Shown here in pieces: positions 22,140 to 23,113 of a stretch of 64,000 nucleotides of DNA. Where the stretch lies: the NCBI RefSeq assembly GCF_056746865.1, contig NZ_CM163382.1; one strand, 5' to 3'. A program made the position numbers and the translations under genes. Under the pieces are notes generated by a model. It was not told where the DNA came from, did no database searches, and saw only the letters and a list, made by a program, of their open reading frames with translations. How positions within the stretch are numbered: position 1 is the first letter of the stretch; every line of letters begins with the position of its first letter.

Positions 22140-22237
22140 TAATTAATGGTGCTGGAAGGTAAGAATAAAAAAGGGTGCCAGCAGGAAAATGAGATGATTT
22201 TGCTTTATTAACAACGAGCTAAACGTGTAGTATTTGA
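22140..22237 (+). promoter_or_regulatory. Putative AT-rich CRISPR leader
   Basis: AT-rich stretch directly upstream of the first repeat; the degenerate repeat is at the opposite end, consistent with leader-proximal polarity. Confidence 0.4.
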
Positions 22238-22445
22238 GTTCACTGCCGTACAGGCAGCTTAGAAATCGACGGGGTGCGGTAAAACCTTTGCGAACGCGTT
22301 CACTGCCGTACAGGCAGCTTAGAAAGCTGTATTCGGCAAATGAAGTGGATGTTGATGGTTCACTGCCGTACAGGCTGCTTAGAAATTCGTACTTAACGAA
22401 CTGTTGCTCCTCTGCTGGTTCACTGTCGAACAGGCAGATAAAATG
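22238..22445 (+). CRISPR. Type I-F (Ypest-type) CRISPR array: 4 repeats and 3 spacers, with no adjacent cas genes (orphan)
   Basis: 28-bp repeats GTTCACTGCCGTACAGGCAGCTTAGAAA at 22238-22265 and 22298-22325, a one-mismatch copy at 22358-22385 and a degenerate terminal repeat at 22418-22445; 32-bp spacers at 22266-22297, 22326-22357 and 22386-22417. Confidence 0.9.
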
Positions 22446-22844
22446 CGAAAAAAGCTCGTACTTTCGTACGCGCTTTTCTTTAAATATGACGGTGAGGGGG
22501 GGATTGACTCGCTTCGCTCGCCCTGCGGGCAGCCCACTCACTGTGTTCGTGGTCTGTCCAACTGGCTGCGCCAGTTGTCGAACCCCGGTCGGGGCTTCTC
22601 ATCCCCCCTGGAGTGCAATATGCGAAAAAAAAGCTCGCACTTTCGTACGAGCTCTTCTTTGAATATGGCGGTGAGGGGGGGATTGACTCGCTTCGCTCGC
22701 CCTGCGGGCAGCCCACTCACTGTGTTCGTGGTCTGTCCAACTGGCTGCGCCAGTTGTCGAACCCCGGTCGGGGCTTCTCATCCCCCTTGGAGTGCAATAT
22801 GCGAAAAAAAAGCTCGCACTTTCGTACGAGCTCTTCTTTGAATA
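22445..22844. repeat. Tandem direct repeats (~2.3 copies of a ~178-bp unit), each containing the serW terminator plus a ~17-nt copy of the tRNA-Ser 3' end
   Basis: Unit starts gcgaaaaaa(aa)gctcg at 22445, 22622 and 22801; copies 1 and 2 are near-identical over ~175 bp; each contains cggtgagggggggatt, which matches the 3' acceptor/T-arm of serW. Confidence 0.85.
22803..22838 (-). terminator. Putative rho-independent terminator of serW (a copy of this element is present in each tandem unit)
   Basis: On the minus strand, hairpin agctcgtacg-aaag-tgcgagct followed by a T-run, immediately 3' of the tRNA. Confidence 0.65.
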
Positions 22845-22932
22845 TGGCGGTGAGGGGGGGATTCGAACCCCCGATACGTTGCCGTATACACACTTTCCAG
22901 GCGTGCTCCTTCAGCCACTCGGACACCTCACC
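22845..22932 (-). tRNA. serW: tRNA-Ser (anticodon GGA)
   Basis: Reverse complement reads GGTGAGGTGTCCGAGTGGCTGAAGGAGCACGCCTGGAAAGTGTGTATACGGCAACGTATCGGGGGTTCGAATCCCCCCCTCACCGCCA, with long variable arm and encoded CCA. Confidence 0.95.
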
Positions 22933-23113
22933 AAATTGTTTTGCTGCCAAACCTCATGGGTGGCAACGGGGCGCTACTATAGGGAGTTGGAGTAAAACGG
23001 TCAAGAAGAATTTTAATGATAATTATTGTTTGCTCATACTGTAAACAAGTTGTGCAGTATATCTACATCGAGACAAGTTATGGATTTATACTTCCAAAGT
23101 ACTTCATACATAT

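Follow-up and report, generated by a model that had tools for sequence, protein, structure and literature searches.

The tandem repeats that lie beside the tRNA-Ser(GGA) gene serW are an array of RtT-type tRNA-linked repeats (TLRs; Rfam RF00391), a family that has already been described; the repeat is real, and it is not new. Very probably, the array consists of two full RtT-type units attached to serW that form a co-transcribed, structured RNA element, the copy number of which changes through unequal recombination or slippage and not by the action of an integrase. The analysis established the identity, anatomy, polymorphism, distribution and structural covariation of the serW units. The features in and around the array, within the window (the whole stretch of 64 kb that was analysed), are as follows:

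22238..22445, plus strand: remnant of a type I-F CRISPR array without cas genes; it has four repeats, of which the last is degenerate, and is transcribed towards serW (Rfam CRISPR-DR4 matches; repeat search)
22446..22486, minus strand: outermost (third) terminator block, the copy that has diverged most (58-nt repeat family, 91% to the other copies; terminator scan)
22487..22624, minus strand: distal RtT-type unit, with a 19-nt tRNA 3' copy that has one mismatch, GTCA for GCCA (RF00391 match)
22625..22665, minus strand: second copy of the terminator block (repeat search; sequence)
22666..22803, minus strand: proximal RtT-type unit, the full-length 'rsW', ending in the 19-nt serW 3' copy including CCA (RF00391 match; 100% identity to its counterparts in strains Yu5 and 405)
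22804..22844, minus strand: intrinsic terminator of serW, a 16-bp hairpin followed by U8, and first, proximal copy of the terminator block (sequence; RNA fold of the unit; 58-nt repeat family)
22845..22932, minus strand: serW, coding for tRNA-Ser(GGA), to which the repeats are attached (ARAGORN; Rfam tRNA model, 53.8 bits)
22976..23004, minus strand: predicted promoter-like site upstream of serW, TTGACC, 17-nt spacer, TATAGT (consensus scan only)

The array extends from 22446 to 22863, between the CRISPR remnant and serW. Tandem Repeats Finder reported a period of 179 with 2.3 copies and 97% matches (score 790, at 22448-22863), and a repeat search of the window yielded two 179-nt copies that are 97% identical (22448-22626 and 22627-22805), as well as a 58-nt block, comprising the terminator and the tRNA 3' end, that occurs three times (at 22448, 22627 and 22806; 91% identical). 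These values bear out the first-pass annotation of this DNA, which had described a unit of ~178 bp in ~2.3 copies; its unit length and its unit starts (22445, 22622 and 22801) are right, because the homology of the array continues a few bases leftward, to 22440, 22617 and 22796, with spacings of 177 and 179. The serW terminator hairpin that had been seen in each unit corresponds to the three copies of the 58-nt block, and the GC-rich segment that had been assigned to copies 1 and 2 is reflected by a 44-nt piece of it that is present in exactly two places in the window (0 expected, from 100 shuffles). Likewise, the third copy does run into the real serW (22845-22932, minus strand), and the array does abut the CRISPR array, where it adjoins the degenerate fourth type I-F repeat (22418-22445). 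A published description confirms where serW is situated in I-F loci. In every 179-bp unit, the serW terminator is accompanied by a 19-nt copy of the 3' end of tRNA-Ser(GGA); the presence of this tRNA-derived copy had been recognized, and its length, previously given as ~17 nt, is corrected here. The copy reads tggcggtgagggggggatt in the proximal unit (22666-22684, 19/19 against the serW 3' end) and tgacggtgagggggggatt in the distal unit (22487-22505, 18/19).

Both units match the RtT model on the serW strand and over its full length (model positions 1-130), with 43.6 bits for the distal unit (E = 8.4e-7, 22487-22623) and 41.6 bits for the proximal unit (E = 2.5e-6, 22666-22800). The gathering score of RtT in Rfam is 45 bits; both units fall just under it, and are therefore missed by strict Rfam annotation and left unannotated in this strain. 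At the serW locus of other strains, near-identical units exceed the RtT cut-off and carry the label 'RtT sRNA' given by PGAP (RefSeq). In some strains, a spurious 'hypothetical protein' call overwrites a unit. The catalogued Ser-type TLRs of K-12, rsX1-3, score 46.3, 46.3 and 36.1, a range that includes the scores in the window, which lie above that of the Arg type (31); members of the family are also located behind tyrT/V, proK, the lysT operon, lysV, arg tRNAs and serX. TLRs are defined by an 18-19-bp 3' end that is identical to that of the upstream tRNA (PMC8144298), and the last 19 nt of the serW units agree with the tRNA 3' end at 19 (proximal) and 18 (distal) positions. Moreover, the units (22487-22803, minus strand) lie directly 3' of serW (22845-22932, minus strand) in the same orientation, the locus holds two full units and a tRNA-proximal block in a family that counts one to five units per locus, and the homology to the K-12 rsX units amounts to 92.6% identity over 140 nt.

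In E. coli K-12, four units are present at serX and only a 40-bp stump, rsW', at serW, in agreement with the supplement of PMC8144298, which places rsW' at serW and rsX1-4 at serX; the rsX1-4 names are those of EcoGene and Rudd 1999, as cited in PMC8144298. The array in the window is the full-length form of the element that is reduced to the stump rsW' in K-12. According to the same paper, the family has been known in E. coli since 1978 (Egan & Landy 1978; Rudd 1999), the former work being quoted there for a '178-bp sequence repeated 3.14 times' at tyrT/tyrV. TLRs are found behind 5S rRNA genes as well as tRNA genes; they are without known function, and one strain in the supplement lacks all 22 of them (PMC8144298).

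At least one unit is present at serW in 969 of the 5,426 complete E. coli genomes (18%). A query-coverage census of genomes with exactly two units was abandoned; since repeated parts of the query inflate coverage, copy number was taken from a sample of 11 evenly spaced unit-positive genomes, five of which have one unit, five two units, and one three units. In these 11 genomes, the numbers of CRISPR repeats and spacers vary independently of the number of units, and the outer junction is constant; an identical outer junction is found in K-12, with 0 units at serW. In the laboratory strain E. coli B REL606, two units are present (NC_012967, ~942,588-942,940). The serW array is a common polymorphism, with 1-3 copies where it is present, that is independent of the I-F CRISPR content and of the island that uses serW as attachment site. 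The serW units constitute a clade of their own, with 98.6-100% identity among themselves and 92.6% to the serX units, and between strains the distal units are orthologous to one another, as are the proximal ones. Units of most other species group by locus, and in the non-coli Escherichia sp. MOD1-EC7003 the serW units carry a serX-like terminator variant. Recent gene conversion from serX to serW was rejected in view of the separate clade and the 92.6% identity, a distance similar to that of the E. albertii serX units; an older exchange between serX and serW may have occurred. The history at serW may have involved loss in 82% of the strains, or gain or introgression in 18%.

Beyond E. coli, Ser-type units were found in more than 10 enterobacterial genera. 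The cross-species set comprised 43 loci with the Ser-type motif, from one genome per species; ARAGORN called a tRNA in 35 of them, in all cases tRNA-Ser(GGA) with the units downstream of it, and eight loci were without a tRNA call. Most of the Ser-type units match their own tRNA at 19/19 positions, and a variant of the tRNA in Pantoea is mirrored in its unit.

The RNA fold of the unit has a z-score of -4.9, and in an alignment of 39 units from more than 10 genera 93.7% of the cells are paired, a fraction that is inflated because the structure was derived from the same sequences. In these 39 units, 14 pairs change on both sides, compared to 7.4 +/- 1.3 after shuffling (0 of 500 shuffles attain 14), and the covariation score is 0.156 versus at most 0.046 for slid registers, a control that is of help without being independent. 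The consensus given by RNAalifold placed the closing stem in another register and missed the GCCC/GGGC hairpin because of homopolymer runs, and it was replaced by an explicit structure. From the Tyr to the Pro and Ser types, stems P1, P2 and P6 vary along with the tRNA, and many compensatory changes across genera leave the pairing of hairpins P3 and P4 intact. Read along the serW strand, a 179-bp unit is composed of a terminator copy followed by a structured element of ~135 nt that ends in the last 19 nt of the tRNA, including CCA. The predicted closing stem of this element pairs GGGGGGAU with the tRNA-derived AUCCCCCC, and encloses a second T-stem-like hairpin (CCCC/GGGG, then UUCGA), two variable hairpins, the GCCC/GGGC hairpin and a C-GA-helix-GA-G motif. 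The compensatory base-pair changes in the Ser-type units across genera speak for selection on this 45-year-old 'function unknown' family as a structured nucleic acid.

Repeated partial tRNA 3' ends next to a tRNA gene and a CRISPR remnant invite other readings. The first-pass annotation had preferred to regard each partial tRNA 3' end as an attL or attR left over from repeated integrase-mediated insertion and excision at serW, a gene that is indeed a genuine integration hot spot, with an ~80-kb tyrosine-integrase island in strain 300033 and OI-43 in O157 EDL933 (PMC3064760). The real islands look different, however: the one in strain 300033, which serves as a natural control, duplicates only 14 nt (TGGCGGTGAGGGGG), and the direct repeat of OI-43/48 in O157 comprises no more than the final 14 nt of the tRNA (PMC3064760). 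In both cases the 14-nt repeats bracket tens of kb with a tyrosine integrase, whereas the units match the tRNA over 19 nt within a 58-bp block and a 179-bp period, and what sits between their repeats is the unit core, from which element genes are absent. ORF translations revealed no credible ORF in or beside the array. Excision of such islands is precise and scarless, restoring serW (PMC3064760), and in strain 300033 the unit is untouched on the displaced native flank. The 103-bp core had 0 matches in 50,697 phage records and none in genuine plasmids, the plasmid matches being mostly chromosome-sized or mislabelled records, and a mobile-element origin of the core was rejected on these grounds. 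Because the 14-nt att core is present in every unit, the question was raised whether a unit could be a secondary attB for islands of the SRL/OI-43 type. A chimeric query (island end, 19 nt and unit core) found an island end joined to a unit core in 0 of 5,426 genomes, where the island end always abuts the true tRNA-Ser, and this candidate was rejected for that family of islands. The check for the 103-bp segment at island boundaries that had been proposed earlier is thereby answered in the negative; as to the outcome that had been named as damaging to the scar reading, an arrangement invariant across E. coli together with a segment never borne by islands, the second part was found, and the arrangement proved variable (0-3 units). 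Together with the existence of related units behind Tyr, Pro, Lys and Arg tRNAs and of TLRs behind 5S rRNA genes (PMC8144298), and with the TLR/RtT membership of the units, these data leave the scar reading highly improbable. It is very unlikely, too, that the repeats extend the I-F array functionally, for instance as a trailer or terminator module that was acquired together with it. The array does follow the degenerate last CRISPR repeat without a gap, and the outermost terminator copy is terminator-like on both strands (scan match at 22457-22470), so that it could stop CRISPR transcription heading to serW; an insulating side-effect of the extra terminators is possible. Against this, K-12 has the identical CRISPR/terminator junction with 0 units, unit and spacer numbers vary independently, in many genera the serX units, beside ghrA, have no CRISPR in their vicinity, and the comparison with I-F-positive E. 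coli that had been suggested turned up two type I-F cas-positive strains that lack units at serW. As these cas-positive strains are without units and Escherichia sp. MOD1-EC7003 has units at serW without CRISPR repeats, the adjacency is incidental, and the CRISPR remnant is a neighbour of the repeat family and not a part of it. The practical point for annotation is that the repeat belongs to the TLR (RtT) family, although it resembles an att scar or a CRISPR trailer.

It is also unlikely that the units are decayed tandem copies of serW, structureless and roleless, that persist by drift alone and are kept uniform by gene conversion with serW. In support of such an origin, the unit contains, beyond the 19-nt 3' end, more pieces of the T-arm of its own tRNA (GGGGUUCGA, CCCC/GGGG), as do the Tyr, Pro and Lys types, and its 3' end tracks the tRNA across species. 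Nevertheless, neither ARAGORN nor the Rfam tRNA model recognizes a tRNA in the units: the search that had been advised to exclude a pseudo-tRNA found one tRNA in the window by ARAGORN, serW, and only 22848-22932 by the Rfam model, with no pseudo-tRNA or second tRNA. A non-tRNA core (GGCCCGMAGGGCGAGC..GCGAGUMAUCC, AUGAGAAG) is common to tRNA types with unrelated bodies, the compensatory changes in hairpins P3 and P4 across genera are not predicted by drift, and in the Tyr and Ser types the closing stem runs 2-4 bp past the T-stem into the acceptor strand, an extension that is not copied from the tRNA. Decay of a tRNA may still be the distant origin of the element. Finally, the conserved ATGAGAAG might be the start of a Tpr-like ('protamine-like') peptide encoded by the units, as it is the exact start of K-12 tpr (b1229) in the tyrT unit; ORFs in the window with MRSPDRGST... 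resemble MRSFDQGST of Tpr. These ORFs are unequal, however (60 aa versus ~42 aa from the equivalent ATG, read by hand from the translations), the Shine-Dalgarno-like GGA has zero spacing to the ATG, and the substitutions are paired changes in RNA stems that are not codon-aware. Because 1-nt and 2-nt indels in close homologues (alignment columns 63, 88, 106-107 and 120) break the frame, Tpr-like coding potential was rejected, and this reading is extremely unlikely.

With the units taken as RtT-type TLRs, the number of copies at serW (0, 1, 2 or 3) would shift when the 58-bp direct repeats of terminator and tRNA 3' end undergo unequal homologous recombination or replication slippage, and an integrase would not be involved. 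Unequal recombination is inferred from the way the arrays vary; the alternative to the scar that had been put forward earlier, amplification of the serW 3' flank by unequal crossing-over, fits the data (0-3 units, constant outer junction). As a strong terminator separates serW from the units, their transcription would depend on read-through of this terminator, which is its most likely route by analogy with RrA/B/F behind 5S rRNA genes, which are transcribed by terminator read-through and processed (PMC8144298). The promoter-like site at 22976-23004 is the presumed source of any read-through transcript over the units. The tRNA-identical 3' end may then be handled by the tRNA 3'-processing machinery to give a stable small RNA, and release of such an RNA has been reported for the rtT RNA of tyrT; transcription and processing of the serW units would follow these precedents. 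A more speculative reading, and a rather doubtful one, is that RtT-type TLRs are selected structured RNAs that mimic the T-arm and 3' acceptor strand of their own tRNA, with the copy number as the dose of decoy or competitor. The predicted closing stem with its tRNA-derived 3' end, the second T-stem copy with UUCGA, a ~70-nt insertion at the T-loop closure and the apparent co-evolution of the units with their own tRNA would suit such mimicry. The decoy targets would be readers of the T-arm and CCA, such as RNase P, RNase E, 3' exonucleases, the CCA-adding enzyme, TruB or TrmA, and strain differences in unit number would, if this reading is true, tune the maturation or stability of tRNA-Ser(GGA).

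Among known systems, the att duplications at serW and serX (OI-43/OI-48, the SRL-PAI family and the 300033 island) resemble the units in that they place a partial tRNA-Ser 3' copy downstream of an intact gene, but they consist of 14 nt, in two copies only, tens of kb apart around an integrase island that excises precisely, and contain nothing like the 179-bp unit or its conserved structured core. The 5S-linked rrA, rrB and rrF belong to the TLR class and, like the serW units, are situated between two terminators downstream of a stable-RNA gene, of which they repeat the last 18 nt (PMC8144298); host gene and internal sequence are different. Their RNAs bind Hfq and CsrA via GGA motifs, whereas tRNA-linked TLRs score <0.01 in the CsrA-binding predictor of that study (PMC8144298).

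The TLRs of tyrT and tyrV (rtT RNA, rttR; RF00391) share with the serW units a period of ~178-179 bp, the tandem arrangement directly downstream of the tRNA on the same strand, unit ends that equal its last 19 nt, a closing stem formed by the 5' end and the tRNA-derived 3' end, and the core motifs AUGAGAAG, GGUUCGAC, GCCCG(A/C)AGGGCGAG and GAGU(A/C)AUCC. They differ in the host tRNA (Tyr versus Ser GGA at serW) and, with it, in the tRNA-matching segments (GAAGG/CCUUC versus GGGGG/CCCCC), in the middle hairpins, and in the RtT score, which is 133-137 bits for the tyrT/tyrV type and 42-44 bits for the serW units. The Ser-type unit has a canonical intrinsic terminator hairpin, whereas inspection by eye of the spacer of the tyrT unit revealed no hairpin followed by a U-run. 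Termination at the tyrT locus is reportedly Rho-dependent (Rossi et al. 1981). The rsX1-4 repeats at serX in K-12 have an identical tRNA, the same architecture as the serW units including the terminator copy, 92.6% core identity to them and similar Rfam scores. The locus (ycdU-serX-ghrA versus clpA-serW-infA) and the locus-specific terminator variant (gcccgtac at serX against gctcgcac at serW) set the two apart, and serX-type arrays, next to ghrA, are present in most of the genera sampled, whereas no more than 18% of E. coli have serW arrays, which make up a clade of their own. The biological gain is modest, and consists of the polymorphism of the serW array and the compensatory changes in the Ser-type units.

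The tandem units described in the first-pass annotation are present and real. Tandem Repeats Finder returned a period of 179 bp with 2.3 copies and 97% matches (score 790, 22448-22863), and a repeat search of the window detected two 179-nt copies with 97% identity as well as a 58-nt block in three copies, starting at 22448, 22627 and 22806; the homology of the array reaches slightly leftward, to 22440/22617/22796. Within the GC-rich segment, one 44-nt piece is found in exactly two places in the window and in none of 100 shuffles. The features concerned are:

22845-22932, minus strand: serW, tRNA-Ser(GGA), the sole tRNA called by ARAGORN in the 64 kb
22666-22684, minus strand: tRNA 3' copy in the proximal unit, nearer serW, tggcggtgagggggggatt, 19/19
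22487-22505, minus strand: tRNA 3' copy in the distal unit, nearer the CRISPR remnant, tgacggtgagggggggatt, 18/19
22238-22445, left of the array: cas-less type I-F CRISPR remnant of four repeats, the last degenerate

The copy of the tRNA 3' end was correctly recognized, but its length is 19 nt by sequence and not approximately 17 nt. ARAGORN called only serW, and no pseudo-tRNA in the units. A 132-aa ORF on the minus strand (22143-22541) covers the CRISPR array and the distal unit, and PGAP annotates a 'hypothetical protein' (WP_012602745.1), matched on equal length and relative position, in several strains (comparison loci L056, L058, and L070). This call looks spurious because the translation reads through the repeats (FLSSLYGSE three times).

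Both units matched the whole Rfam model RF00391 (RtT) on the serW strand, the distal unit at 22487-22623 (43.6 bits, E = 8.4e-7) and the proximal unit at 22666-22800 (41.6 bits, E = 2.5e-6), which is below the gathering score of 45. The RtT RNA comes from the classical 178-bp repeats that follow tyrT, and the wider class has been named tRNA-linked repeats (TLRs), encompassing 22 copies at ten loci in K-12, with one to five per locus (PMC8144298). The K-12 TLR loci scored 133-137 (Tyr), 101 (Pro), 47-60 (Lys), 46.3/46.3/36.1 (serX units), and 31 bits (Arg) with the same model, and since the scores of the window units sit among these, the units are, judged by this model, ordinary Ser-type members. 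In the K-12 lysT operon (lysine/valine tRNA; L052 762-930, 1051-1217, 1355-1521, and 1577-1744) the model matches begin within the tRNA-Lys genes; these units lack the AUGAGAAG module and carry an inverted T-arm copy instead (GAUUCGAACCUGC-AG-CAGGUUUGAG), and represent a distinct sub-architecture. The supplement of PMC8144298 names the K-12 elements, including rsX1-4 at serX and rsW', a 40-bp stump at serW, and in other E. coli strains an 'RtT sRNA' is already annotated by PGAP at this very position. The feature is real and was well described, but its family has been known since 1978, the locus is catalogued as rsW', and sister strains are annotated by automatic pipelines. TLRs are without known function, an early functional claim having been retracted (PMC8144298). 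The present analysis adds how frequent the serW polymorphism is and over what range of copy numbers, shows that the array is independent of CRISPR content and of the island targeting serW, sets a true att event beside the units, and provides covariation evidence for structural selection on Ser-type units.

On the serW strand, from 5' to 3', the unit consists of the following parts:

Part 1: terminator hairpin with U8
Part 2: short linker
Part 3: GGGGGG-AUGAGAAG-CCCC-GACC-GGGGUUCGAC
Part 4: two variable hairpins
Part 5: GCCCGCAGGGC
Part 6: C-GA-GC-GAA-GC-GA-G
Part 7 (3' end): UCAAUCCCCCCCUCACCGCCA

The non-tRNA motifs AUGAGAAG, GGUUCGAC, GCCCGMAGGGCGAG, and GAGUMAUCC are constant in the Ser, Tyr, and Pro types, and comparison of these types revealed four short segments that track the T-stem of the own tRNA (Tyr GAAGG/CUUC/AAGG/CCUUC, Pro GAGG/CCUCC/GGAGG/CCUCU, Ser GGGGG/CCCC/GGGG/CCCCC). 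Because these segments follow their own T-stems, the element looks like a T-arm-like hairpin, a T-arm with approximately 70 nt in its loop, and an acceptor 3' strand with CCA. Most units end in 19 nt identical to the 3' end of their own tRNA, and a tRNA variant of Pantoea is mirrored in the Pantoea unit. The closing stem of the Tyr and Ser types continues 2-4 bp past the T-stem into the acceptor strand, and this extension, not being a tRNA copy, points to selection on pairing. Folding of the unit RNA gives -73.8 kcal/mol (z = -4.9 versus shuffled sequence). Moreover, in an alignment of 39 distinct Ser-type units, with an explicit six-helix structure derived from the same sequences, 93.7% of cells were standard pairs, 14 two-sided pair changes were found versus 7.4 +/- 1.3 in shuffles (0 of 500 reaching 14), and the covariation score was 0.156 versus at most 0.046 in slid registers. 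Compensatory changes cluster in hairpins P3 and P4, and the P3 covariation was found independently by RNAalifold. These data speak for structural selection on Ser-type units.

The element may ultimately have originated from decayed tRNA duplicates, but this leaves unexplained both the non-tRNA core common to the types and the compensatory changes. A Tpr-like peptide encoded by the units could be proposed on the basis that K-12 tpr starts at the conserved ATGAGAAG and that MRSPDRGST... ORFs are present in the window, but it is rejected because close homologues differ by indels of 1 and 2 nt that disrupt the frame. The K-12 tpr gene (b1229, annotated 'protamine-like protein'; L005 1088-1177) starts exactly at the conserved AUGAGAAG motif of an RtT unit and terminates with UGAGUAA, likewise conserved, and its conservation may simply be that of the RNA element.

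The arrangement at serW varies among E. coli, from zero to three units per strain, and is not invariant; invariance, together with absence of the 103-bp segment from island boundaries, had been named as the finding that would speak against an att scar. In K-12, which has zero units at serW, the degenerate terminal CRISPR repeat leads directly to the serW terminator with a junction as in the window (...gataaaatg/cgaaaaaa...). Using a query of core, terminator, serW, and serW-specific upstream flank, which only a serW-attached unit can fully cover, such a unit was found in 969 of 5,426 complete E. coli genomes (18%); in the remainder the alignment ends exactly at the unit boundary. Eleven positives, sampled at even steps down their ranking, contained one (5 strains), two (5), or three units (1), with one to four CRISPR repeats, unrelated to unit number, and no cas genes in the interval. 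In two type I-F cas-positive strains, cas6f is followed after approximately 110 bp by serW, and units are absent, in agreement with the published locus map (PMC12736100). On the distribution of units and CRISPR arrays, in E. coli as in other species, the reading of the repeats as a component of the I-F array is rejected. The outermost terminator copy scores as a terminator on both strands, and as a side effect the extra copies might insulate the CRISPR and serW transcripts, which converge, from each other. In strain YZLc1-3 (L060 1173-1274) an internally deleted third unit of approximately 100 nt, 68.7% identical over the aligned part, sits between two full units and the CRISPR remnant, which shows that units decay by internal deletion too. 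The serW allele of I-F cas-positive strains (L007 23546-23633; L068 2542-2629) has one T-stem pair flipped in a compensatory manner (CGGGGG...CCCCCC to CCGGGG...CCCCGC), which also turns the 14-nt core at which islands attach from TGGCGGTGAGGGGG into TGGCGGTGAGGCGG; integrases of the SRL/OI-43 family may therefore use these strains less readily as targets.

A scan for the Ser-type motif in one genome per species returned 43 loci, from Citrobacter, Klebsiella, Raoultella, Enterobacter, Kosakonia, Pluralibacter, Yokenella, Franconibacter, Pantoea, E. albertii, and other Escherichia. ARAGORN called a tRNA at 35 of these, always tRNA-Ser(GGA) and no other type, with the units downstream wherever both share a locus; the other 8 were without a call. 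Most of the 43 loci adjoin ghrA, which is the serX position, and the infA/clpA position was seen only in Escherichia and one Citrobacter. In Citrobacter sp. Cu233 (L011 2024-5345), 2.8 kb separate infA from the serW-like tRNA and its unit, the tRNA has inserted DNA on either side, and clpA was not found within 6 kb downstream. Escherichia sp. MOD1-EC7003 (L041 11296-11591, L039 1-250, L040) has units at serW and no CRISPR repeats, and its homologue of the clpA-proximal part of the E. coli CRISPR-upstream region abuts a truncated unit, which suggests that this part was intergenic DNA ancestrally and received the I-F array later. L040 also contains a short stretch like the degenerate terminal repeat (aacaggcagata).

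In a neighbour-joining tree of 140-nt cores, E. coli serW units form their own tight clade (98.6-100% mutual identity; 92.6% to E. coli and approximately 90.5% to E. albertii serX units), and units cluster by locus in most other species. Both window units are 100% identical to the corresponding units of strain Yu5, and the proximal one also to that of strain 405. On the basis of this tree the two-unit state is inherited and the arrays evolve in concert locally; recent copying from serX as the source is rejected in view of the separate serW clade. The units would be transcribed by read-through of the serW terminator, the transcripts would be processed at their tRNA-like 3' end, a pathway reported for rtT and RrA/B/F, and the 58-bp blocks would serve as the sites where unequal recombination or slippage shifts the copy number.

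The first-pass annotation preferred an att scar, i.e., units left by integrase-mediated gain and loss at serW, with the 103-bp segment to be looked for at island boundaries. The unit core gave 0 matches in 50,697 phage records and only 15 in 'plasmid' records, most of these chromosome-sized or mislabelled. Since every unit holds the att core, islands within units were also searched for, and a chimeric junction of island end and unit core was found in 0 of 5,426 E. coli genomes. Either half of that query was matched by megablast in only 3,991 of the 5,426, so that at least a quarter have no megablast-detectable Ser-type unit at serW or serX, and the serX array is therefore polymorphic as well. 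Strain 300033 (NZ_CM128588.1, approximately 3,185,750-3,266,000; L067, L069, L070) carries an approximately 80-kb pathogenicity-type island at serW, encoding a tyrosine integrase at the end distant from the intact tRNA, Ag43, afa fimbriae, iro genes, CbtA/YeeU, a type I restriction-modification system with embedded DarTG, and a truncated TOTE conflict-system gene. At the junction facing the tRNA, the CCA end is followed directly by island DNA, which brings its own terminator (...gcgcttataatc/tggcggtgagggggggattcgaaccc). The clpA side matches the window sequence from the three spacers and the terminal repeat to the outer terminator block and a single core, followed by the terminator and tggcggtgaggggg/accgcctgaaat... 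leading to the integrase gene. Both junctions together define an integrase-made duplication of 14 nt, with the unit intact, and the att scar is rejected because the real event leaves 14-nt copies, no scar on excision, and untouched units. The same 14-bp direct repeat (TGGCGGTGAGGGGG) flanks OI-43/48 and SRL-PAI, which have a P4-family integrase and excise precisely, restoring serW (PMC3064760). A true att event at serW thus consists of two 14-nt copies tens of kilobases apart with scarless excision, and the 179-bp unit is neither created nor disturbed by it.
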